From: Malacoraja senta
Taxonomy: Eukaryota
Direction: 5' to 3'
DNA length: 64,000 nt
NCBI GenBank assembly: GCA_038087875.1
Contig: CM075995.1
Location: 5,334,001 to 5,398,000 of the forward strand
This document shows, piece by piece, positions 21,201 through 58,737 of the stretch; position 1 is the first letter of the stretch, and the number at the start of each line of letters is the position of its first letter. Below the pieces are notes generated by a model that ran no database searches, had not been told where the DNA came from, and worked only from the letters and a program-made list of their open reading frames with translations. The translations under genes and the position numbers were made by a program.

Positions 21201-22154
21201 ATGGGTGGCCAGGAGATGTGCCAATACTGTGAGATGTGGGAAATTGTTGACACCATTGATGTAGATGATCCCTACAGCTGCAGTAAGTGTTTGAAGCTAG
21301 CGGAACTCGAGCTCCGCATTGATGAGCTGGAGACCCAACTTCATACGCTGCGGTGCATCAGGGAGGGAGAGTATTACCTGGATGTTTTGTGCCAGGGGAT
21401 GGTCACACCGACCAGTTTAACTAATTCAGTAGTTAGTGAGCAGGGAAAGGAAGGTGTGGCCATAAGGGAGGCAGGTAGGGGGAACCAGGAGGAGATGCGG
21501 CAGGAGCCACAGCCCTTGTCCCTGACGAGCATGACCGAGGCTCTTACTCAATGTGAGGACGGGATCAGGGGCTGTGGGAGGGATGAGCAACCTGGCTGCA
21601 GCACCGTGGATCAGGGGGCCATTCAAGAGGGGGGAGTTAGAAGAAATGCCGTGGTGATAGGGGATAGTATTATTCGGGGGGTAGATAAGGTTCTCTGCGG
21701 CCAGCAGAACATGTCCCGAAGGCTGTGTTGCCTACCCGGTGCTAGGGTTAAGGATATCTCTGCGATGCTGGAGAGAAATTTGCAGAGTGAGGGGGAGGAT
21801 CCAGTGGTCGTGGTCCATGTGGGGACCAATGACATAGGAAGGACGAGGAAGGAGGATCTGCTGAACGAGTTTGAGCAGTTAGGGAATAAATTAAAAAGCA
21901 GAACCTCGAGGGTACTGATCTCCGGATTGCTACCTGAGCCACGGGCCAAATCGGCGAGGGTACGAAAAATTAAAAAGCTGAATGCGTGGCTCAAAGACTG
22001 GTGTGGGAAAAATGGGTTTGGTTTCTTGGGCCACTGGCACCAGTACTGGGACAGGGGGGATCTGTTCTGTAAGGACGGACTTCACCTGAACGGTGCTGGG
22101 ACTGGGGTCCTGGCAAATCATATAACTAGGGCAGTAGAGAGGTCTTTAAACTAA
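21201..22154 (+). CDS. CR1 ORF1p: zinc finger, coiled coil, SGNH/GDSL esterase domain (317 aa)
   Basis: CxxC...CxxC N-terminus, GDSII, LPGA, HVGTND, DGLHL motifs. Confidence 0.93.
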   Translation: MGGQEMCQYCEMWEIVDTIDVDDPYSCSKCLKLAELELRIDELETQLHTLRCIREGEYYLDVLCQGMVTPTSLTNSVVSEQGKEGVAIREAGRGNQEEMRQEPQPLSLTSMTEALTQCEDGIRGCGRDEQPGCSTVDQGAIQEGGVRRNAVVIGDSIIRGVDKVLCGQQNMSRRLCCLPGARVKDISAMLERNLQSEGEDPVVVVHVGTNDIGRTRKEDLLNEFEQLGNKLKSRTSRVLISGLLPEPRAKSARVRKIKKLNAWLKDWCGKNGFGFLGHWHQYWDRGDLFCKDGLHLNGAGTGVLANHITRAVERSLN

Positions 22155-26820: not shown

Positions 26821-27880
26821 ATTGTTGTTCCACTGTCATCCCTGCTAGGATATCTTTCCAGTTAACTTTGGCCAGTTCCTCCCTCATGGCTCCATTGTTC
26901 AATTGTAATACTGACACCACCGATTTTCCCTTCTCCCTCTCAAATTGTAGATTAAAACTTATCATATTATGGTCACTACCTCCTAATGGCTCCTTAACCT
27001 CAAGTTCCCTTATCAAATCCGGTTCATTACACAACACTAAATCCAGGATTGCCTTCTCCCTGGTAGGCTCCAGTTCAAGCTCCTCTAAGAATCCATCACG
27101 GAGGCACTCCACAAACTCCCTTTCTTGGGGTCCAATACCAACCTGATTTACCCAGTCTACCTGCATCTTGAAATTCCCATAACAACCGTAGTATTACCTT
27201 TACGACATTCCAATTTTAACTCTTGATTCAATTTGCACCCTATGTCCAGGCTACTGTTTGGGGGCATGTAGATATGTCCCATTAGGTTCTTTTTACCCTT
27301 ACAATTCCTCAGTTCTATCCATACTGACTACATCTCCTGATTCTATGTCACCCCTCGCAAAGGACTGAATTTCATTCCTCACCAACAGAGCTACCCCACC
27401 CCCTCTGCCCACCTGCCTGTCTTTTCGATAGGACGTAAACCCTTGAATATTCAGTTCCCAGCCCTGGTCCTCTAGCAGCCATGTCTCTGTAATTCCCACA
27501 ACATCATACCTGCCAATTTCTAACTGAGCCTCAAGCTCACCCACTTTATTTCATATACGTCGTGCATTCATATACAACACTTTAACTTCGGTCACTATTG
27601 GCCCTGACCTTACTCTCTTATCCCTTCTCGAACTTTCCTTCCCATTAATTCGGGAGTCTTTTGTAACTTTTCCTGCACTCACTTCCCCTTTAACTCCATC
27701 TTTATACTCCCAATTTGTCAATCCCTCCCACCCACTATTTAGTTTAAACCCACACGTGTAGCCCTAGCAAATCTGCCTGCCGGAACGTTGGCCCCCCTCC
27801 AGTTGAGGTGTAACCCGTCCCTTTTGTACAGGTCACCCCTGCCCCAGAAGAGACCCCAGTGGTCTATAAAGCTAAATCCT
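26821..27880 (-). mobile_element. CR1 element A, 5' part (end of ORF1 and endonuclease domain, degenerate)
   Basis: GITETWL, GGGVALLV, GSDHN; ORF1 end AGRFARATRVGLN* with stop at 27739-27741. Confidence 0.92.
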
Positions 27881-28279: not shown

Positions 28280-29030
28280 TTACATTTAGGTTTATTATCG
28301 CCACATATTCCGAGGGATTGTGGGAAGTTTTGTTTTGCATGCTATCCAATCAAATCAGGTAATACTATATATGAATACAATCAAGCCAATCTCAAGCACA
28401 ATACGTAGGCAAAGGAGAAGACACAGAGTGCAGAATATAGTTCTCAGCATTGTAGCGTAACAGTTCCAGAGACGGAGTCCAATGTCCGCAATGAGATGGG
28501 TTAGAGAATTGTGTGTATACCCAAGTTTATGGAAGGACCGTTCAGAAGCCTGACAACAGAGGGGATGAAACAGTTCCCGAGTCTGGTGGTGCGCACTTTC
28601 AAGCTCCTGTATCTTCTGCCAAACAGGAGCAGGGAGAAAAAGGAATGACGTGGAATGAGAAAGGTCTTTGATTATGTTGGCTGCTTTCTCGAGGCAGATG
28701 GATTCAATGGTGGGGAGTCTGGTCTGTGTGATGGACTGGGCTACCTCCAGAACGTTTTGCGATTTCTTATTGTCTTGGCCAGAGCAGATACCAAACCAAG
28801 CTGTGATGCAACCCGACAGTATGCTTTCTATGGTGCATCTGTACAAGTTTGTAAGAGTCATTAGAAACTTGTGTGATGACCTCAGTGTCCTGAGGAAGTT
28901 AGAGGCATTGTCTGTCGCTTCAACGTGGTTGGTCCAGCTCAGATTTTTGGTAATATTTTTGCCAAGAAACTTGAAGCTCTCAATCATTTCCACTTTGGCA
29001 CCATTTATACAGATTGGGGCATTGACCCCA
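28280..29030 (-). mobile_element. Rex/Babar-like LINE 3' fragment
   Basis: ESFKFLG...LSWTNH...YRCTIESILSGCITAWFG in ORF 28355-29035. Confidence 0.8.
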
Positions 29031-29034
29031 CACA

Positions 29035-29800
29035 CTACTGCCTCACGGTGCCAGAGACCCAGGCTCGATGCTGACTACGTGGGTGCTGTCTGCACAGAGT
29101 TTGTATGTTCTCCCCGTGACCTCGTGGGTTTTCTATGGGAGCTTCTGTTTCCACCAACACTCCAGAGACGTACAGGTTTGTAGGTTAATTGGCTTCGGTA
29201 ACGATTGTAAATTGTGCCTAGAGTAGGATAGCACCGGTGTGCGGGGATCGCTGGTCGGCGCGGACTCGGTGAACCGAAGGGCCTGTTCCCGCGCTCTATC
29301 ACTAAACTAAACTGAAGTCAATAACTCCTTCCTCTTGCTGACTGATTGGGGTTTGAGCACATTGTCCCAGACTTGAGCTCTCCCATGGAAGGACAGAGAC
29401 ATTGAATTAATCCAATAATGGCTCCCTCAATCTGCTATGAATTATCAGCAAAGAAGTTGTGCTCACATTTAACCTGATTGATGGGACGATTGAAAGATAC
29501 AGTATGGAAACCGGATCTTGGGTCCACTAAGTTCTTGCTGACCATCGGTGTCCCGTTCACACTAGTTCTATGATATCCCACTTTCGTATCCACTCCCGGC
29601 ACACTAATTCACAGGGACCAATTAACCTACAAACCCGCACGTCTTTGGAACGTGGGTGGAAACCAGAGCACCCGGATGAAACCTAGTGGTCACAGGGAGA
29701 ACGTGCAAACTCCGCACAGACGACACCCGAGGCCAGGCTCGAACCCGGGTCTCTGGCGCTGTGTGGCAGCAGCTCCACCCGCTGCATCACCGTGCCGCCT
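29035..29800. mobile_element. Two V-SINE copies (~29035-29312 +, ~29490-29800 -)
   Basis: Central domain, tails and tRNA-like head. Confidence 0.8.
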
Positions 29801-38200: not shown

Positions 38201-39136
38201 CCCCTTCCTGCACCATCATGTCTTTACTGGAGCTGAGGATGGCCGGCGGAGGTCTCCAACCAGACACAATTTTCGGAGGGACCAGAAGTGGCCCGGCCCG
38301 AAGTCACCAAACGGAAAGCGGAGTCTGATCCCGGTGGAGGAGTGTCCAGAGCCCGCTGTGAGACTCAAACCCATCGCCATCATAATGCCCCGCAGCTCCA
38401 GCCCCTTCCCTTCTGGTCCCCTTCGCTGGCTCCTGCTCCCCTCTCCCGCGATACCCCCCTTTCCCCCATCGCTCTTCCCCCGTCTTTTCTCTGACCGCTC
38501 CCCCCCATCCACACGCCAGCACAGCTGTAGCTGCTGGTGCTTCTGGGCCGATCCGAGGCCTGGCTCTGAGGGCACCGATGGCTGATGCTTCTCCCGGGCA
38601 CGCAAGCAGGGAGAGGAGCGGCAACCTCGAGCAGGGGCGGAAATCGCTGTCAAAACATGGGGGAGGGGGGGGGACACACAATTTCTTGGTGACCACGCGC
38701 GCACACACTCATGCAAGGCTTCGGCCGTGGGCCCTGTGGACGGTAACATCGGGAGGTGACCTGGTTGGTGACCGACTCCGAACTCCAGCAACAGCAGCTT
38801 CGTTCGCCCGAATCATAGGCTTGAATCGGCCCGTTCGCGGGGCCTTTCATCGCCCGGCGCGGCATAAAATCGGCCGGCGGGGGCTTCATCATCGGGAGCC
38901 TCGATCGCCTCGATCACCTCGATGAGCGGATTGATTTGAAGCCATGCCGGGCCCCGCGAACGGGCCGATTCAGCCCTTAGAAAGCGTCCGATACCCACTT
39001 GAATCTTTCAAAAGCTACAATGGATCACATTGTGATAAATAGATACATAGATACATAGAAATTAGGTGCAGGAGTAGGCCATTCGGCCCTTCGAGCCTGC
39101 ACCGCCATTCAATACGATCATGGCTGATCATCCAAC

Positions 39137-42100
39137 TCAGTATCCCGTACCTGCCTTCTCTCCATACCCCCTGATCCCTTTAGCCACAAGGGCCACATCT
39201 AATTCCCTCTTAAATATAGCCAATGAACTGGCCTCAACTACCCTCTGTGGCAGAGAGTTCCAGAGATTCACCACTCTCTGTGTGAAAAAGTTTTTCCTCA
39301 TCTCGGTCTTAAAGGATTTTCCCCTTATCCTTAAGCTGTGACCCCTTGTCCTGGACTTCCCCAACATCGGGAACAATCTTCCTGCATCTAGCCTGTCCAA
39401 CCCCATAAGAATCTTGTACGTTTCTATAAGATCCCCTCTCAATCTCCTAAATTCTAGCGAGTATAAGCCAAGTCTATCCAGTCTTTCTTCATATGAAAGT
39501 CCTGACATCCCAGGAATCAGTCTGGTGAACCTTCTCTGCACTCCCTCTATGGCTATAATGTCCTTCCTCAGATTTGGAGACCAAAACTGTACGCAATACT
39601 CCAGGTGTGGTCTCACCAAGACCCTGTACAACTGCAGTAGAACCTCACTGCTCCTATACTCAAATCCTCTTGCTATGAAGGCCAACATACCATTCGCTTT
39701 CTTCACTGCCTGCTGCACCTGCATGCCTACTTTCAATGACTGGTGTACCATGACACCCAGGTCTCGCTGCATCTCCCCATTTCCTAATCGGCCACCATTT
39801 AGATAATAGTCTGCCTTCCCGTTTTTGCTACCAAAGTGGATAACCTCACATTTATCCACATTATACTGCATCTGCCAAACATTTGCCCACTCACCCAGCC
39901 TATCCAAGTCACCTTGCAGTCTCCTAGCATCCTCCTCACAGCTAACACTGCCCCCCAGCTTAGTGTCATCCGCAAACTTGGAGATGTTGCTTTCAATTCC
40001 TTCGTCCAGATCATTAATATAAATTGTAAATAGCTGGGGTCCCAGCACTGAGCCTTGTGGTACCCCACTAGTCACTGCCTGCCATTGTGAAAAGGACCCG
40101 TTTACTCCTACTCTTTGCTTCCTGTTTGCCAGCCAGTTCTCTATCCACATCAATACTGAATCCCCAATACCGTGTGATTTAAGTTTGTATCCTAATCTCT
40201 TATGTGGTACCTTGTCGAAAGCCTTCTGAAAGTCCAGATACAACACATCCACTGGTTCTCCCCTATCCACTCTACTAGTTACATCCTCGAAAAATTCTAT
40301 AAGATTCGTCAGACACGATTTACCTTTCGTAAATCCATGCTGACTTTGTCCAATGATTTCACCACTTTCCAAATGTGCTGCTATCCCATCTTTAATAACT
40401 GACTCTAGCAGTTTCCCCACTACCGATGTTAGACTAACTGGTCTGTAATTCCCCGTTTTCTCTCTCCCTCCCTTCTTAAAAAGTGGGGTTACGTTTGCTA
40501 CCCTCCAATCCTCAGGAACTACTCCAGAATCTAAAGAGTTTTGAAAAATTATCACTAATGCATCCACTATTTCTGGAGCTACTTCCTTAAGTACTCTGGG
40601 ATGCAGCCTATCTGGCCCTGGTGATTTATCGGCCTTTAATCCATTCAATTTACCCAACACCACTTCCCGACTAACCTGGATTTCACTCAGTTCCTCCATC
40701 TCCTTTGACCCGCGGCCCCCTGCTATTTCCGGCAGATTATTTATGTCTTCCTTAGTGAAGACGGAACCAAAGTAGTTATTCAATTGGTCTGCCATATCCT
40801 TGTTCCCCATGATCAATTCACCTGTTTCTGACTGCAAGGGACCTACATTTGATTTAACTAATCTCTTTCTCTTCACATATCTATAAAAACCTTTGCAGTC
40901 AGTTTTTATGTTCCCTGCCAGTTTCCTTTCATAATCTATTTTCCCTTTCCTAATTAAGCCCTTTGTCCTCCTCTGCTGGTCTCTGAATTTCTCCCAGTCC
41001 TCTGGTATGCTGCTTTTTCTGGCTAATTTGTACGCATCATCTTTTGCTTTGATACTATCCCTGATTTCCCTTGTTATCCACGGATGCACTACCTTCCTTG
41101 ATTTATTCTTTTGCCAAACTGGGATGAACAATTTTTGTAGTTCATCCATGCAGTCTTTAAATGCCTTCCATTGCATATCCACCGTCAACCCTTTTAGAAC
41201 TAATTGCCAGTCAATCTTGGCCAATTCACGTCTCATACCCTCAAAGTTACCTTTCTTTAAGTTCAGAACCGTTGTTTCTGAATTAACAATGTCACTCTCC
41301 ATCCTAATGAAGAACTCAACCATATTATGATCACTCTTGCCCAAGGGGGCACGCACAACAAGTCTGCTAACTAACCCTTCCTCATTACTCAATACCCAGT
41401 CTAGAATAGCCTGCTCTCTCGTTGGTTCCTCTACATGTTGGTTTAGATAACTATACCTCATACATTCCAAGAAATCCTCTTCCTCAGCACCCCTGCCAAT
41501 TTGATTCACCCAATCTATATGTAGATTGAAGTCACCCATTATAACTGTTTTGCCTTTGTTGCACGCATTTCTAATTTCCTGTTTGATGCCATCCCCAACT
41601 TCACTACTACTGCTAGGTGGCCTGTACACAACGCCCACCAGCGTTTTCTGCCCCTTAGTGTTTCGCAGCTCTACCCATACCGATTCCACATCCTCCAAGC
41701 TAATGTCCTTCCTTTCCACTGCGTTAATCTCCTCTCTAACCAGCAACGCCACCCCACCTCCTTTTCCTTTCTCTCTATCCCTCCTGAATATTGAATATCC
41801 CTGGATGTTCAGCTCCCAGCCTTGGTCACCTTGGAGCCATGTCTCCGTGATCCCAACTATATCATAATCATTAATTGCTATCTGCACGTTCAACTCATCC
41901 ACCTTATTACGAATGCTCCTTGCATTGAGACACAAAGCCTTCAGACTTGTTTTTACAACGCTCTTACCCCTTATACAATTATGTTGAAAAGTGGCTCTTT
42001 TTGATTTTTGCCCTGGATTTGTCTGCCTGCCACTTTTACCTTTCACCTTGCTACCTATTGCTTCCGCCCGCATTTTACACCCCTCTGTTTCTCTGCTCAC

Positions 42101-42262
42101 CCATTTAAGAACCCCACCACCTCTTATTCTCTGTTTATTATTGTTTTCTTCTTTCCCCCCTACATGTTGGGTCTGAGTGCTTTCCTTCTCTGCCTCCTGC
42201 CTCACACACTGTCTAATAGCATTCTCTATTTGAGTCCCTCCCCCCAACCATTCTAGTTTAAA
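39137..42262 (-). CDS. CR1 ORF2: APE endonuclease plus RT (frame open from the slippery site; first ATG after it at 42073)
   Basis: CLNARS, ITETWL, GDFN, SDHN, YRPVSLTS, QGSVLGP, FADD; no stops. Confidence 0.95.
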   Translation of the reverse strand, partial: FKLEWLGGGTQIENAIRQCVRQEAEKESTQTQHVGGKEENNNKQRIRGGGVLKWVSRETEGCKMRAEAIGSKVKGKSGRQTNPGQKSKRATFQHNCIRGKSVVKTSLKALCLNARSIRNKVDELNVQIAINDYDIVGITETWLQGDQGWELNIQGYSIFRRDREKGKGGGVALLVREEINAVERKDISLEDVESVWVELRNTKGQKTLVGVVYRPPSSSSEVGDGIKQEIRNACNKGKTVIMGDFNLHIDWVNQIGRGAEEEDFLECMRYSYLNQHVEEPTREQAILDWVLSNEEGLVSRLVVRAPLGKSDHNMVEFFIRMESDIVNSETTVLNLKKGNFEGMRRELAKIDWQLVLKGLTVDMQWKAFKDCMDELQKLFIPVWQKNKSRKVVHPWITREIRDSIKAKDDAYKLARKSSIPEDWEKFRDQQRRTKGLIRKGKIDYERKLAGNIKTDCKGFYRYVKRKRLVKSNVGPLQSETGELIMGNKDMADQLNNYFGSVFTKEDINNLPEIAGGRGSKEMEELSEIQVSREVVLGKLNGLKADKSPGPDRLHPRVLKEVAPEIVDALVIIFQNSLDSGVVPEDWRVANVTPLFKKGGREKTGNYRPVSLTSVVGKLLESVIKDGIAAHLESGEIIGQSQHGFTKGKSCLTNLIEFFEDVTSRVDRGEPVDVLYLDFQKAFDKVPHKRLGYKLKSHGIGDSVLMWIENWLANRKQRVGVNGSFSQWQAVTSGVPQGSVLGPQLFTIYINDLDEGIESNISKFADDTKLGGSVSCEEDARRLQGDLDRLGEWANVWQMQYNVDKCEVIHFGSKNGKADYYLNGGRLGNGEMQRDLGVMVHQSLKVGMQVQQAVKKANGMLAFIARGFEYRSSEVLLQLYRVLVRPHLEYCVQFWSPNLRKDIIAIEGVQRRFTRLIPGMSGLSYEERLDRLGLYSLEFRRLRGDLIETYKILMGLDRLDAGRLFPMLGKSRTRGHSLRIRGKSFKTEMRKNFFTQRVVNLWNSLPQRVVEASSLAIFKRELDVALVAKGIRGYGEKAGTGY

Positions 42263-43188
42263 GTCTCCCCAGTAGCCTTTGCAGATCTCCCCGCCAGGAT
42301 ATCGGTCCCCCTCAGGTTCAAGTGCAACCCATCCTTTTTGTACAGGTCGAACCTTCCACAAAAGAAGTCCCAATGATCCAGAAATTTGAATCCCTGCCTT
42401 CTGCACCAGTCCTTCAGCCACGCATTAATCCTCCACCTCGCTCCATTCCTACTCTCACTGTCGCGTGGTACAGGCAGTAATCCCGAGATTGTTACCTTTG
42501 CTGTCCTTCTCTTTAACTCCCCTCCTAACTCCCTAAATTCTCCTTTCAGGACCTCTTCTCTTTTTTTACCTATGTCATTGGTACCTATATGTATCACGAC
42601 CTCGGGCTCCTCTCCCTGCCCTTTCAGGATGTCTTGGACACGTTGGGACACATCACAGACCCTGGCACCAGGGAGGCAAACTACCATCCGGGTCTCCCGA
42701 CTGCGTCCACAGAATCGCCTGTCTGACCCCCTAACTATAGAGTCCCCTATTAATATTGCCCTCCTCTTCTTTTCCTTACGCTTCTGAGCAACAGGACCGG
42801 TCTCTATACCGGAGGCCCGGCTGCTGTCGCTACCCCCAGGTAGGCTGTCCACCCCAACAGTGCTCAAACAGGAGTACTTATTGTCAAGGTGTACAGCCAC
42901 CAGGGTACTCTCTAGTCCCTGCCTGTGCCCCTTGCCTCTCCCAACCGTGATCCACTTGCCTGCCTCCTGTGGTGTTGGAGTGACCACATCCCTGTAACTC
43001 CTCTCAATGACTTCCTCGCTCTCCCTGACTAGACGGAGGTCATCGAGCTGCTGCTCCAGGTTCCTAATACGGTCCATTAGGAGCCCCATCTCGATACACC
43101 TGGCGCAGATGTGGACGTCTGGAGGGCTAACAGACTCCATGACTTCCCACATCTGACATCCAGAACAGTAAACTGCCCTGGCCGTCAT
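42253..43188 (-). CDS. CR1 ORF1p: zinc finger, coiled coil, SGNH esterase (311 aa from MTARAVYC)
   Basis: CSGC...CARC, GDSIV, LPGA, HIGTND, DGLHL. Confidence 0.93.
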   Translation of the reverse strand: MTARAVYCSGCQMWEVMESVSPPDVHICARCIEMGLLMDRIRNLEQQLDDLRLVRESEEVIERSYRDVVTPTPQEAGKWITVGRGKGHRQGLESTLVAVHLDNKYSCLSTVGVDSLPGGSDSSRASGIETGPVAQKRKEKKRRAILIGDSIVRGSDRRFCGRSRETRMVVCLPGARVCDVSQRVQDILKGQGEEPEVVIHIGTNDIGKKREEVLKGEFRELGGELKRRTAKVTISGLLPVPRDSESRNGARWRINAWLKDWCRRQGFKFLDHWDFFCGRFDLYKKDGLHLNLRGTDILAGRSAKATGETLN

Positions 43189-43210
43189 ACTCCCCTTACC
43201 CTGGATAGAA

Positions 43211-43334
43211 TATAAAACAAACTGATAGAATACAAAACAAACTGCTACAATACAAAACAAACTGCTACAATACAAAACAAACTGCTACAATACAAAACAA
43301 ACTGCTACAATACAAAACAAACTGCTACAATACA
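43211..43334. repeat. 20-bp tandem repeat, ~6 copies, in CR1 5' UTR
   Basis: Unit TACAAAACAAACTGCTACAA. Confidence 0.97.
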
Positions 43335-43441: not shown

Positions 43442-43910
43442 TTTCGGACCTCTGTTAGGAACAAGCCCCCGCACTCCTTTTTAAGTCCTACCGCTCGGTT
43501 GTAGCTCCTCCCTCAGCGACCTCTCCAACGGCTTTCGGACCTCTGTTAGGAACAAGCCCCCGCGCTCCTTTTTAAATCCTACCGCTCGGTTGTAGCTCCT
43601 CCCTCAGCAACCTCTCCAACGGCTTTCGGACCTCTGTTAGGAACAAGCCCCCGCGCTCCTTTTTAAGTCCTACCGCTCGGTTGTAGCTCCTCCCTCAGCG
43701 ACCTCTCCAACGGCTTTCGGACCTCTGTTAGGAACAAGCCCCCGCGCTCCTTTTTAAGTCCTACCGCTCGGTTGTAGCTCCTCCCTCAGCAACCTCTCCA
43801 ACGGCTTTCGGACCTCTGTTAGGAACAAGCCCCCGCGCTCCTTTTTAAGTCCTACCGCTCGGTTGTAGCTCCTCCCTCAGCGACCTCTCCAACGGCTTTC
43901 GGACCTCTGT
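43442..43910. repeat. 91-bp tandem repeat, ~5.2 copies, in CR1 5' UTR
   Basis: Unit starts at 43442, 43533, 43624, 43715, 43806, 43897. Confidence 0.97.
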
Positions 43911-47173: not shown

Positions 47174-47183
47174 GACTAGGGAC

Positions 47184-50100
47184 AAGCATTTTATAATAAA
47201 GAGAACCGGATGAAACAACAAACATTGGAAAGGGAAATAAAGCAACTAGATATAGAAAATGCGAGAATGCCATCTACGTTAAAACATAATAAAATTGCTG
47301 CATTGAAATATAAATTAAACAAAATGTATTCAGAACATGTAATAAAGCTTTATCAACACACTAAACAATTACATTTTGAGTTCGGAGACAAACCTCAAAA
47401 ATTATTAGCACGTCAGCTACGAAAAATGCAGGGGGAAAAAATAATTCATAAAATTAGAACAGATACAGGAGAATTATTAAAACTGCCCAAGGACATAAAC
47501 GAGAGATTTCTCCAATACTATCATAATCTTTATTCAACTAAAACTGTAGTACAACCAGAAGGAACAGCAGAATGTTTACAAAAATGTAATTTAAAAGGTC
47601 TAGACTCAAAAGATAGAGAATTATTAGAAGCGGAGATTACGATAAAAGATATTGAAGTCTATTGGATCTTTAAAAAATGGTAAAGCAGTAGGACCAGATG
47701 GTTTAGGCTCTGAATTTTATAAAAAATTGTATGACTTGATCTCTCCACGTTTACAAAGGTTGTGTGAGCATATTTATACTCAACAGAAACTCCCAGATAC
47801 CTTAAACGAATCTATAATAACACTTATTCCAAAAGCTGATAAGGATCCAGAAGATCCAGGATCATATAGAGCAATTGCACTTTTAAATACAGATCAAAAA
47901 ATACTAACTAAAATTTTAGCGCACAGATTAAGTAAAGTGATGAATAAATTAATACACCCTGACCAAACAGGCTTTATTCAGAAACGGTATTCATATTTTA
48001 ATTTGAGAAGATTATTTAATATAATATACTCAAAGAGAATTATTAATGAAGATCTAGCAATAATCTCACTTGACGCTGAAAAAGCTTTTGATCAGGTGGA
48101 ATGGCCGTATTTATTTTCGGTGATGGAAAAATTACAGCTGGGCGATAAATTCTGCGCATGGATAAAACTGTTATATACCAACCCAACGACTAGAATATTA
48201 ACAAACCAAAGGTTATCATCTAAATTCAACTTATCTAGAGGTTACAGACAAGGATGCCCGTTATTTCCATTATTATTTGCGCTTGTTATCGAGCCACTCG
48301 CAGAGTTAGGACTCATCCGGAAATATATGGATATAACACAAAGGATACAGTGAATAAAATTTCTCTATATGCAGATGATGTATTAATTTACATTACAAAA
48401 CCAGAAATTAGTATTCCAAATTTACTAAAGCTAATAACCCAATTTGGGTCACTTTCTGGATATAGAATAAATTGGAATAAAAGTGAAATTATGCCAATAA
48501 GGGAACATAATAAACATATAACACAATTCCCGTTTAAAATAGTAAATGAAAAATTTAAATACCTAGGAATTTATGTCACTAAGATATATACATCATTATT
48601 TAAAGCAAATTTTCCCCCATTACTGAATAAACTACAAAAGAATATTCAGTACTGGAAAACTCTTCCTTTCTCAATGCTTGGTAAAATGAATGCCATAGAA
48701 ATGATTTTCTTACCGCAAATATTATACCTATTTCAAACAATTCCAATATACTTGCCAACATTTTTTTTTTAAGTTGGACTCCACTGTCAGTGATTTTATC
48801 TGGGATTATAAGAATCACAGGATAAGCAAAAAGCATCTGTGTAAATCGAAAATAAACGGAGGTTTGGTTTTACCAAACTTTTTGTTTTATTTTTGGGCAG
48901 TTAACATTAAAAATATGAATTTTTGGCTGGAAGAAATAGATCAACAACCAGATTGGTTAAAAATGGAAAAGGAAGATTGTTCACCATTTGAAATCGGCTC
49001 GATAATATTTGCTACTTCTAAATTAAACAAAAAAATTTATAGGGAAAATCCTATAATATATAGTGCTATGCGAATTTGGAAACAATTAAAAAATACATTA
49101 AAATTAGATAACATATCACTTTTTCTTCCAATCGCGAATAATCCTTTATTTAAGCCCTCATGGGTGGATTAACAATGGAAAAACTATGGAATTAAAAAGA
49201 TGGGACAACTTTACAAGGAAGGCACTTTTCTTTCATTTCAGGAATTGCAACAGACTTATGGACTTCAAGTAAATGATTTCTTTAGATATCTTCAACTTAG
49301 AGATTATGTAAAAGCAAATACCCAAAACTTTAGAATTAGAAATTCAGAAATTCTTGATCACTGTTGGAATAAACATCCTAATACAGAAAAATTAATATCT
49401 TATATATATAATATTTTATTAGATAGTGAAATTCCATCGACGGATTTACACAGACAAACATGGGAAAAAGAACTAAATCAAATAATAACGAAAGATACTT
49501 GGGAAGAAAGTTTACAACACATACATCAATGTTCATTAAATACCAGACACTCTCTAATACAATTTAAAGTAATACATAGGTTACATTATTCCAAAACAAA
49601 ATTAAATAAAATCTTCCCACATATCTCACCTATATGTGATAAATGCCAACATTTAGAGGCTAATTTATCTCATATGTTTGCAAATTGCATAAAAATTAAA
49701 AAATTCTGGGCAAATATTTTTTAGAATAATATCTAATGTGACGAGCACTCAATTGGACCCGGATCCAAAATTAATAATACTAGGAACATTAGAATTAAAT
49801 CAAACATTTACAACAACTCAAAGAAACTTTATTGATTATAGTATAATAACTGGGAAAAAATTAATTCTAAAATTTTGGAAAGGCCCTATAACCCCCACAA
49901 TCAAAATGTGGATTATAGAAATGACGGAGACCCTACACTTGGAAAGAATTAGACTTGTCCTGTTGGACAAACAAGAACTATTCGTTGGAACATGGTCTCC
50001 CTTTATTGATTATTTAAAGGGTCAGAACGGTTCAGCACGCGAACCTGACTAACACTCGAGCCAAGGAATAGATGAAATGTTCGGAAATGTACGAATATAC

Positions 50101-55462: not shown

Positions 55463-56530
55463 ATTCAGATTCAGATTCAGATTCAGAAAACTTTATTGTC
55501 TGTCGTAACAGAAAATCTTCTTTGGCGTGGCTCAACATACAAACAGGACAATGTACTGATAAGCTGTCATACAACACAGATTTCTGCGAGCACACACCGT
55601 GTGTATAGATCTTAAAAGCAAGTATAAGGATTAAAAACTGTAAAAATAGACAAGATGAAAGTTGTGGATTATTGTAAAGTGACAGTGCGTCAGGGTTAAT
55701 TTGTCCATTGTTCATTTTTTATTTAAGCTGTTTATGGCAATGGGTATGAATGAGTTTTTGTGGATGTTTTTCTTAGATAGGGGGACTTTATATCGGCGGC
55801 CTGATGGCAGAAGTTGGAAGGACTTGTGCAGGGGGTGGGTGGGATCCTGTGTAATGAGGTTGGCTTTCCTTTTAACTGCCTGGGTGTGAAGTACTGATAA
55901 TTGATTTTGAGTTTTGCCAGTTATTTTGCTTGCTTGATTGATGATCCGGGAAAGCTTTGATTTGTCTTTGACAGAGGTGAGGGTGAACCAGGATGTGATG
56001 TTAAAGGTGAGTACAGATTCTATAAGTGATTTATAGACAGCTGTTAAAATGTCCTGTCTGACATCAAATCTCCTGAGTTTTCTCAGCAGGAACAGGCGTT
56101 GCTGTGCCTTCTTGTACACAGAGTCTGTGTGCTGGGAGTAGGACAGGCGGGTGTCAATCTCTGTGCCCAGGTATCTAAAGGCCTCTACCTGCTCAACTGT
56201 CTGCCCATTCAGCCTCAGAGGTTCAAAGAGAGGTTGGGGGGAAGATGTCCGCCTCCCCCCACAACATAGCTCCTTGGTCTTGGAGATGTTAAGCTCCAGA
56301 GAGCTCTCTTTGATCCACAGCATCAGGGTGTTGACCTGCTGATAGTAGGCAGCCAGAGAAGTGTGATCCTTGATGTGGGCCACCAGGGCCATATCGTCTG
56401 CATACTTAAAAAGGGAAATGTCACTGTTATTGTTTGTTATGTTGTTTGTGTAGATGGAAAATAAAATCGGTGATAAAACACAACCCTGGGGGACACCAGT
56501 GTTTAAAATCATGTTCTTGGATTTAAAACA
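55463..56530 (-). mobile_element. Rex/Babar-like LINE, 5'-truncated, with an open RT C-terminal frame (55712-56551)
   Basis: NTGVPQGCVLSP, KYADD, FRYLG, AQQRLFLLRKL, DPTHPLH; (TCTGAA)n tail. Confidence 0.88.
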
Positions 56531-57554
56531 ATAGTGGCATTTAAGCCACATGATTATGTAGGTAATGAGGGGTACGGATCATGTACTCCGATACTTTCCT
56601 CCTGATGATAGAAGTGCAATGAGAGTGTGCCTAGGGTGCTGCTGGTCTTTGTTGATATTGGTTGCCTTTTTGAGGCAGCACCTCCAATGGATCCCAGCAA
56701 TGGCGGGAAGTCAGCATACGTGATGGTCTGGGCAGTGTCCACCACTCTCTGTAATCTCCTTAGTTCCTGGACGTTCGAATAGAGGGATATAGATCACGTG
56801 TCGTCAGATGCGATTAGTTTGTCTTGGAATTAAGTTAGGTACAGACATTGTGGGCTGATGGGCCTGAACCTATGCTGTACTCTTCTAAGTTCTATGTTCT
56901 ATGAAATAATAAACGGATATTTTGGCCTTGGCATTTATTTTTGTTCCTGAATGGCTCATTCCCATCTAGACTTTATAATTGATGTGTGTGAAAAGATTTA
57001 TGTTCCCTTGCAACATCATTTCATTGTTCCTTTTACTCTATAATTATTATTTTTGTTTTAATTCTTAGAATGTTTTGTACTCTCTTATTCATGGCTCTCT
57101 CTCTCTCTGTTGTCTTTATATTCCAAATCTGTCAATAACGTCATTATAAAAAAAAAATTCTGCTTGTTCTCCAATATCTTCTACAATCTTCTACAACTTT
57201 CATCGAACCCAGTTTCCAACCATCAGGCAACATTTTACGGTGATTGAAATCTGACTACCAATACAAAATTTGACCTGAGTTGGTGATTATTTTGTTTTAT
57301 TAAAAATATACAATATGCCCATGGTAAGACTGCGAGCTGATATTTGCTTACAATGCAGATCAATTTAATGGATCTCAGACACAACTGTCTGCATTTGGCC
57401 CATATCCCTCTAAACCTTTTCGTATCCATGTACCCATCCAAATGTTGTTATAGTACCTGCCTCAACTACCTCCTTTGGCAGCTCGTTCGAAAGACTCACC
57501 ACCCACTGTGTGAAAACACTGCCTCTTGTGTTCCTGTTCAATCTTTCCCCTCTG

Positions 57555-58737
57555 AATCCTGCCCTGAGCTGGTTCATCTCCTACCTCAAAGGTAGGAGTT
57601 TCTCGACTAACATAGGCAACTCTTTCTGCTCCCCAGCTAATCTCTGTTGTGGGGTTCCACAAGGTTCCATCCTTGGCCCCATTCTCTTCTCCCTGTATAT
57701 GCTCCACCTTAGGCCAAGTCATTGAAAGGCACGGCATTTCCTTCCATTGCTACGCAGACGATACACAACTCTATCTCCCCCTGAAGCCCAAAAACCAATC
57801 AAATCTGCTTAACCTTACCCACTGCCTCGAGGATATAAAGTGTTGGATGGCCCAGAACTTCCTCCAACTAAACGAGAGTAAGTCTGAGGTCATCCTTCTC
57901 GGCCCCTCAGACTCAATCAAAATGATAGCAGGCAGCCTTGGAAGCCTTGCCCCACTACTCAAACCTCACGTCAAAAACCTTGGCTGTGATATTTGACTCA
58001 GCACTGAAATTTGACAAACAAGTCAATGCCGTGGTAAAAGCTAGCTTCTTTCAGCTTTAGGACGATAGCTAAAATAAAATAATTCCTCCAGTTTGATGAC
58101 CTCGATAAGATCATCCACACATTCTTCTCCTCCCGCCTAGATTACTGCAACTCCCTTTACACTGGCATCAGCCAATCTTCCCTGACCCCGCCTGCAACTG
58201 GTCCAAAACACCGCAGCGAGACTCCTGACGGGCACCCGAAAAAGGGGACCACATCACCCCTATCCTGGCCTCTCTCCACTGGCTCCGTGTGGTTCCGTTA
58301 TAAACTTCAAGATCCTCCTCCATGTCTACAAAGCCCTCAATGGGCTTGCCCCCACCTACATAAAAAGTCTTCTCACCCACCACTCCACCTCCAGGCCCCT
58401 CAGATCGGCCAACTTGGGCTGCTGAATATCCCACGGTCTAGGCATAAGCTCAGGGGCGACCGTGCCTTTGCGGTTGCAGCCCCTAGACTGTGGAACAGCA
58501 TTCCCCCTTCCCATCAGAACTGCCCCCCTCCATCGACTCTTTTAAGTCAAGACTAAAGACTTATCTATACTCCCAAGCCTTTCCTGACGTCCTCTGAGTG
58601 AGGGCTACATATATATATGTATGTAGTTTGTTTTGTTTGTGCTATTCTTATAACAAATGTAAAGCACTTTTTGGCCAACGAGAGTTGTTTTTTAAATGTG
58701 CTATAATAAATAAATGTGACTTGACTTGACTTGACTT
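57555..58737 (+). mobile_element. L2-clade LINE 3' fragment (frameshifted), inserted in a CR1 fragment
   Basis: [53 protein letters not shown] 3' motif and (GACTT)n tail. Confidence 0.9.

Follow-up and report, generated by a model that had tools for sequence, protein, structure and literature searches.

A Conserved Slippery Heptamer at the End of ORF1 Suggests −1 Ribosomal Frameshifting in Skate CR1 Retrotransposons

Introduction

Two reviews describe the translation of the second open reading frame of LINEs as an open question (PMC3894237; PMC3708506). The question is raised anew by a locus of the skate Malacoraja senta. In the window studied here (64,000 nucleotides of contig CM075995.1, the whole stretch that was analyzed), a CR1 element, hereafter element D, has an ORF1 ending in ACT TTA AAC TAG and an ORF2 that continues in the −1 frame. 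Among retrotransposons, the CR1 group dominates in most vertebrate species (PMC13343379). Slippage at the heptamer U UUA AAC is efficient, given a stimulator located 5-8 nt downstream (PMC3919603). Is the reverse transcriptase of element D then made by ribosomes that slip at the end of ORF1, or does ORF2 have a start of its own? A conserved site of seven bases makes this question of LINE ORF2 translation testable.

Organization of Element D

Element D is an intact esterase-type CR1 LINE, ordinary for a CR1 in its make-up, and lies on the minus strand. Its assignment to CR1 is based on the domains of ORF1 and ORF2, on the features of the 3′ end and on the likeness of its ORF junction to CR1-labelled consensuses. 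The 5′ UTR contains two tandem arrays, with 5.2 copies of a 91-bp unit (43442-43910) and 6.3 copies of a 20-bp unit (43209-43334). ORF1 (42253-43188, ATG at 43188) encodes 311 amino acids comprising two zinc-finger-like CxxC motifs (residues 8-11 and 28-31) and an SGNH/GDSL esterase with GDS and DGLH motifs (Lipase_GDSL_2, PF13472, E 3e-14); it ends with ETLN, and its closest named homologs are found in skates and rays. The heptamer T TTA AAC, of the X XXY YYZ type, is read in the ORF1 frame (42256-42262) and is abutted by the ORF1 stop codon TAG (42253-42255). ORF2, in the −1 frame (39137-42256; 1039 codons and a stop), comprises a linker, an APE endonuclease (Exo_endo_phos, PF03372) and a reverse transcriptase (RVT_1, PF00078). 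The linker runs for 104 codons without stops from the slip site to the first strand of the endonuclease (41945-42256), and the first in-frame AUG of ORF2 (42071-42073) is located 61 codons past the slip site. The 3′ UTR (39046-39136) carries a predicted stem-loop (39103-39065) and a short microsatellite tail in place of poly(A). Such a stem-loop with a short-repeat tail and no poly(A) is a feature of CR1 LINEs.

The first-pass annotation of this DNA had located the heptamer and the stop, had placed the sequence GGTTGGGGGGAGGG 6 nt past the heptamer, had described a −1 frame open for about 60 codons before the first ATG and had predicted a fusion protein of 1350 amino acids. On the minus strand these coordinates are found again, with GGTTGGGGGGAGGG beginning at 42249. 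The −1 frame is open for 61 codons before the ATG at 42073 and for 1039 codons down to 39137, so that a tandem −1 slip would join 311 and 1039 codons into the same 1350 residues.

The window holds two other CR1 elements with the same heptamer. In element C (family C, plus strand, 22145-22151) the heptamer is followed by TAA and a run of seven Gs. In a third, decayed CR1 (family G, minus strand, 27742-27748) it is followed by TAA, and the −1 frame is open to the start of the endonuclease. The family of element D is young, all 150 listed matches to its last 65 ORF1 residues (17,213 candidates) being 100% identical.

Conservation of the Heptamer in the Skate Genome

Seven queries against the 1.94-Gb genome yielded 200 loci; for each query, 20-30 of the 150 listed matches, the best ones, were retained. 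A single query (30 loci) included the terminal Leu-Asn; the others stopped six residues earlier or relied on the Pfam model. Together with those of the window, these loci provided 204 ORF1 ends, of which 188 remained once duplicates were removed, a sample favouring well-kept copies rather than a census. TTTAAAC occurs in frame, as the last two codons, in 177 of these 188 ends and in nine families. Five of the 11 other ends read TTTAAAT or TTTAAAA, which are still compatible with X XXY YYZ. Family sorting covered 184 ends (C 17, D 77, E 29, F 30, G 14, H 2, I 6, J 7, K 2), three unassigned D/E copies and one copy with a deletion being omitted. The bare sequence TTTAAAC is common, with 24 occurrences on the two strands of the window; it is its placement at the end of ORF1, not its mere occurrence, that exceeds chance.

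Codon usage was compared in the eight families with distinct ORF1 ends, which are 40-94% identical in amino acids over 35 codons. The codon before the last Leu is TCT, ACT, GAT, GGT or GTT; five different residues (S, T, D, G, V) are thus encoded, always by a codon ending in T. The last Leu codon is always TTA, a codon that accounts for about 15-20% of Leu codons in these elements, and three invariant Leu residues upstream use two to four codons. The terminal Asn is encoded by AAC, or by AAT in family J, and the stop codon after the heptamer varies between families (TAA, TAG, or TGA). Upstream, identity between families at third positions is only 37-89%, and C, D, and F differ from one another at 43-60% of these positions. 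The heptamer is conserved at the nucleotide and codon level, beyond the needs of the protein. The eight families are related and therefore do not represent eight independent trials. The first-pass annotation had seen independent conservation in elements C and D. The divergence on which it relied is real (40% amino-acid identity in ORF1, 66% in ORF2), but the sharing is better described as common ancestry kept under selection than as convergence.

Could the esterase itself need a terminal Leu-Asn, the heptamer being a by-product together with an overlapping Phe-Lys-Leu start of ORF2? Leu-Asn is indeed found exactly 26 residues past the catalytic Asp in 45 of 86 homologs; tails of 20-34 residues past the catalytic motif are present in 61 of the 86, and 52 of these 61 end with Leu-Asn. 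Such a need would, however, fix neither TTA nor the T that precedes it. Moreover, the −1 frame upstream of the heptamer has no Met in D, C, E, and F, and in C and F it closes seven codons upstream; Phe-Lys-Leu could therefore not be reached by initiation. In distant proteins, the tail switches between LN, GN, and KN, all compatible with slippage, and KN is kept at tail positions 27-28 in 11 of 32 longer tails. This explanation is disfavoured and, of those considered here, we regard it as the most improbable.

Distant Relatives and Published Consensuses

A profile search with representatives at 50% identity retrieved 137 new proteins, giving 109 unique tails with the motif, the profile itself favouring LN endings. 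A dipeptide compatible with X XXY YYZ (one of 16) ends 56 of the 109 tails, to be compared with a background of 5% by position, and 53 end with no compatible dipeptide. When LN endings are excluded, 23 of 76 tails are compatible (GN 11, KN 5). Named proteins ending with LN, known here by their protein sequence only, belong to frogs, lizards, a snake, turtles, a swallow, and an eel.

Among 33 metagenome loci, six (L221, L231, L228, L222, L224, L225) carry G GGA AAC at the end of ORF1, directly before TAG in five of them. Their ORF1 is 28-38% identical to that of D, L221 and L231 being nearly identical to each other. The −1 frame enters an endonuclease 31-33% identical to that of D in L221, L231, and L225; in L221 and L231 this frame has a Met just ahead of the heptamer. 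Locus L240 has no canonical in-frame heptamer and L223 ends before the site. No convincing endonuclease start was found after the esterase in 25 of the 33 loci. A search of viral contigs gave no relative, and 25 loci from prokaryotic genomes were discarded as weak matches without an adjoining endonuclease.

In the available part of the supplement of PMC13343379, 17 of 23 matches to TTTAAAC plus a stop are located at the esterase end of CR1-labelled consensuses, a count made by eye and without a denominator. A further match belongs to a Crack-labelled element, and the remaining five lie elsewhere. The labels of the 17 read as alligator, crocodile, bearded dragon, bullfrog, coelacanth, bowfin, elephant shark, catshark, dogfish, sawfish, and stingray. 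With published CR1 consensuses spanning chondrichthyans to crocodilians, the site is a real and deeply conserved feature.

The Linker and the Open −1 Frame

The modal distances between the esterase Asp and the endonuclease Asn are 242, 266, 269, 272, 275, and 407, all equal to 2 modulo 3. By family, they are 272 in C (14 of 16), 407 in D (51 of 73), 242 in E (25 of 28), 275 in F (14 of 27), 266 or 275 in G (5 of 8), and 269 in I (2 of 5). The first-pass annotation had made its reading depend on linkers free of stops and frameshifting indels at the subfamily level, and this is what was found in C, D, E, F, G, and I, each with a clear in-frame modal length; J and K are too decayed for this comparison and H has no measurable copy. 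The two remaining frames contain 4-11 stops per linker, and shuffled pre-AUG linkers are stop-free with P 0.011-0.16 each. An open linker persists in 45 of the 73 copies of D, in 14 of the 27 of F and in one of the five of J, and the single K copy has none (0 of 1). The closed linkers of D, F, and J read as decay after insertion.

A count of indels across linker copies, also proposed in the first-pass annotation, does not discriminate, because single copies gather frameshifting indels at about the rate of the endonuclease. Per kb and per copy, linker and endonuclease values are 0.69 and 0.11 in C, 1.35 and 1.16 in D, 0.70 and 1.92 in E, and 3.45 and 2.07 in F. No such indel recurs in more than three copies, and counting at the copy level therefore measures decay after insertion.

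Between its 5′ end and 42099, element D matches family E at 89-92% identity; from 42098 down to the tail, it matches family F at 93%. D is thus an E/F recombinant with a breakpoint inside the linker (42098-42099, minus strand) and the frame kept. It has the whole linker of E, continued without a change of frame by most of that of F. One random switch in three would preserve the frame and a single event is at hand, so the recombinant lends modest support only. A second frame-keeping recombinant, L213, was rejected as evidence of selection, being represented by only two adjacent copies. As a side observation, contigs of another organism have loose ends that match the E and F continuations at the same places.

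Amino-acid constraint was sought in the pre-AUG linker from pN/pS and found no support there. D and E differ in this part by 19 replacement changes and one silent change; it therefore behaves as a free spacer. The F-derived part of the linker, mostly past the AUG, has four replacement and five silent changes. Constraint located mainly after the AUG fits an AUG start in D and F; E has the unconstrained linker alone.

Start Codons of ORF2

The main competing proposal is that ORF2 is a separate protein, produced by ribosomes that terminate at the ORF1 stop and reinitiate. They would do so on the following AUG (codon 61 in D), on UAAUG (F) or on a non-AUG codon (E). The amino-acid constraint lying mainly past the AUG of D argues for it, as does the route via UAAUG demonstrated for SART1 (PMC3708506). 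SART1 has a bicistronic LINE RNA with a UAAUG like that of family F, which has an in-frame TAATG and is the sole family with a stop-start of this type. The stop-start is absent from C, E, G, and I. In D, the AUG following the stop (42251) opens another frame, only 12 codons long, which does not make a SART1-type stop-start; three other out-of-frame AUGs (42222, 42165, 42104) also come before the first in-frame one. Near-cognate start codons exist in every linker, which also speaks for this proposal. AUG-independent translation is moreover the case for ORF2 of L1. Nevertheless, a near-cognate start at a position shared across linkers was sought, and none was found.

Family E is of particular interest in this respect. 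In 13 of its 22 open copies, the first in-frame Met is located 211 codons beyond the Asn of the endonuclease NARS motif, and the four commonest positions of the first Met are all inside ORF2, past this Asn. Reinitiation would thus find no AUG ahead of the endonuclease in E. One copy of this family (L218) has an uninterrupted frame of 984 codons that starts at the heptamer and reaches the end of ORF2. In the other families, the positions of the first Met scatter from codon 1 (F) to about codon 62. AUG starts fail as a general account of ORF2 translation. Reinitiation also leaves unexplained the fixed codons of T TTA AAC, the switch to G GGA AAC and a −1 frame that is open from the heptamer onwards. 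It is unlikely as the general mechanism, and family F may use both the frameshift and the UAAUG routes.

Proposed Mechanism and Known Systems

Programmed −1 ribosomal frameshifting at the end of CR1 ORF1 would best explain these comparisons, and we give this reading a probability of roughly 85%. The first-pass annotation had arrived at the same idea. It now receives support from codon conservation in nine families, from a family (E) with no AUG ahead of its endonuclease, from a second heptamer in distant relatives and from the out-of-frame AUGs of D. Taken together, the conserved slip site, an ORF2 lying in the −1 frame and the absence of any AUG ahead of the endonuclease in family E suggest that the reverse transcriptase is likely made as a slip-derived fusion. 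A minority of ribosomes would slip back by one base at U UUA AAC and skip the stop, tRNA-Leu and tRNA-Asn presumably shifting in tandem onto UUU AAA. The predicted product is a 1350-residue protein in which esterase, linker, endonuclease, and reverse transcriptase follow one another. Most ribosomes would terminate and release a 35-kDa ORF1 protein, and the adjacent stop codon perhaps assists slippage. The outcome would be a gag/pol-like ratio, with much ORF1 protein and little ORF2 enzyme.

A different possibility is that the motif acts at the RNA or DNA level, with TTTAAA serving as a weak polyadenylation signal or TATA-like element next to a G-rich tract downstream, as a splice acceptor or through polymerase slippage, giving separate or frame-corrected mRNAs. 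TTTAAA does resemble polyadenylation and TATA-like signals, G-runs are known as processing elements, and the G-run that follows the CR1 heptamer is conserved. Against this, the motif is kept in codon phase and swaps to GGGAAAC in distant loci. The stop varies between TAA, TAG, and TGA, so there is no fixed AG acceptor. In four contig sets of related organisms, RNA contigs span the junction without a joint at the site; this is weak evidence, as such contigs show neither frame nor level. Finally, an mRNA for ORF2 only would lack the endonuclease in family E. A signal of this kind is very unlikely, appreciably more so than reinitiation.

Frameshifting by −1 is known in viruses, in LTR elements and, as stated in a review, in Dictyostelium LINEs; for CR1 none was found described, and the usual stimulator is lacking here. 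A thesis on waterfowl CR1 is said to mention a putative frameshift site where the two ORFs overlap, and an earlier proposal is therefore quite possible. The literature search, which included the available texts of PMC3905857, PMC8915115, and PMC11835228, found no proposal of frameshifting for CR1; the founding CR1 papers (Kajikawa 1997; Kapitonov and Jurka 2003; Kojima 2005) are outside its coverage. The term CR1 is absent from the available text of PMC5009743. Vertebrate esterase-type CR1 elements (type IVB ORF1, CR1 subgroup 7, PMC4120745; canonical CR1, PMC13343379) have the same ORF1 with a CxxC pair and an esterase, the same ORF2 with APE and reverse transcriptase, and a short-repeat 3′ tail. 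In the main texts of these two papers the word frameshift is absent, and ORF2 is treated as a separate ORF.

The closest precedent among LINEs is that of TRE5-A and TRE3-A of Dictyostelium, whose ORF2 requires a −1 frameshift according to a statement in a review (PMC5911963). They are APE-type non-LTR elements; unlike CR1, they are amoebal and target tRNA genes. Coronavirus 1a/1b and retroviral or LTR gag-pol have the same order as D, with structural genes before enzymes. In contrast to these, D has no hairpin that could be found, its 3′ element is a G-run, and it is itself a non-LTR retrotransposon without a recognised protease.

If frameshifting is the correct reading, the CR1 ORF2 protein is mis-annotated, since it would begin in ORF1 and carry the esterase. 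The counting of intact CR1 copies would change (family E looks start-less), as would the design of CR1 retrotransposition constructs, and CR1 would provide a rare natural case of −1 frameshifting in vertebrate nuclear DNA. A wider proposal is that of an ancient gag-pol-like CR1 fusion, extending from jawed vertebrates to distant relatives, stimulated by a natural G-quadruplex or G-run in place of a hairpin or pseudoknot and holding a membrane-binding esterase covalently with the endonuclease and reverse transcriptase. We offer it tentatively and consider it doubtful as a whole.

The Candidate Stimulator

The least certain part of the proposed mechanism concerns the stimulator, for which the candidate is the G-run, as a two-tier G-quadruplex or a protein-binding site. 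Downstream of the site, no hairpin was better than those of shuffled sequences (z from −1.15 to +0.82 and from −1.47 to +1.04, in folds without pseudoknots). These folds give no stable stem-loop 5-9 nt downstream, where a canonical −1 signal has a stem-loop or pseudoknot, and the region is C-poor. A run of 5-7 Gs (nine in J) starts 8-12 nt past the heptamer in nine of nine families; as a background, five Gs are present in 4-7% of the 25-nt windows of these elements. In D, the G-rich element (42236-42249, minus strand) has a run of six Gs (42245-42240) and is predicted to form a two-tier G-quadruplex. G4Hunter places the G-run window within the top 0.05% for C, D, and E. Folding predictions give a G-quadruplex as the structure of minimum energy for D, E, F, and G, and a different structure for C, H, I, J, and K. 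L221, L228, L222, and most published consensuses have a similar G-run after the site; L225 does not. Two-tier forms of the G-quadruplex are weak.

Codon repeats of human genes have reportedly been studied for quadruplexes and frameshifting. Synthetic G-quadruplexes placed 6-8 nt past UUUAAAC gave about 7% −1 shifting in vitro (PMC3919603); these were three-tier, whereas the CR1 form is two-tier only and is not predicted in every family. According to a 2016 review, natural use of G-quadruplexes in frameshifting was not then known, and CR1 would possibly supply it if the proposed mechanism holds.

Long-range pairing between the G-run and the 3′ UTR was also considered. In all of the 14 copies tried, the UTR came between ranks 1 and 6 of about 80 sites, the first 160 of about 320 UTR bases being used for family C. 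Among six families, a family's own UTR was the best partner of its G-run only for C (tied) and I, which indicates no cognate preference. Between 23 and 286 of 500 shuffled UTRs pair as well with the G-run, and the partner tract in the UTR is part of the local 3′ stem. As a separate observation, the G-run encodes Gly-Gly in the −1 frame; a role at the peptide level is therefore possible.

Recombinant Structure of Element D

In element D, the intact minus-strand CR1, the breakpoint between families E and F lies at window 42098-42099 (-). The recombinant origin is common to D's whole family, which is abundant and young. ORF1 and the 5' linker (the linker being the -1 frame stretch from the TTTAAAC heptamer to the endonuclease) come from one family, and ORF2 and the 3' UTR come from another. 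The structure of the D family is one of modules swapped between CR1 lineages. A second E/F junction, where the linker is shorter and in-frame, was found only in L279 and L280, two adjacent copies located 6.5 kb apart (G000:C3).

Variants of the ORF1-ORF2 Junction

A third, decayed CR1 junction, belonging to family G, carries an identical heptamer followed by TAA and a G-rich run (window 27742-27819, -). In family F (L111-L140), TAATG directly follows the heptamer, so that the ORF1 stop overlaps an in-frame AUG. From this arrangement, both frameshifting and stop-start reinitiation could be usable. Among distant relatives, ORF1 of the metagenome locus L225 (851-1310) runs about 125 residues past the esterase, yet still ends with G GGA AAC TAG, here without a G-run after it. 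In a distant group of ORF1 proteins (P0108, P0118, P0121, P0124, P0128, and others), Lys-Asn is kept at position 27-28 of the tail following the esterase catalytic motif, and the stop occurs about 10 residues beyond. This pattern, read from the protein sequences, would fit a site of the form A AAA AAC separated from the stop. Another ORF1 homolog, P0020 (57% identity to that of D), has an NCBI entry that names it a hydrolase of Pseudomonas aeruginosa; its contig is 4 kb long, and the sequence is likely contaminating host DNA.

Untranslated Regions and Other Sequences

The 5' UTR of element D contains two tandem arrays, one of 5.2 near-identical copies of a 91-bp unit (window 43442-43910) and one of 6.3 copies of a 20-bp unit (window 43209-43334), an arrangement that resembles monomer promoters. 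The 3' UTR of element C reaches about 320 nt (window 25139-about 25460, +), compared with about 80 nt in other families, and includes a long predicted hairpin 5' of the usual terminal stem-loop. Elsewhere, translation, judged by eye, points to LINE-like reverse transcriptase gene fragments at window 47180-49724 (+), 55712-56578 (-), 28355-29074 (-), and 58083-58556 (-).
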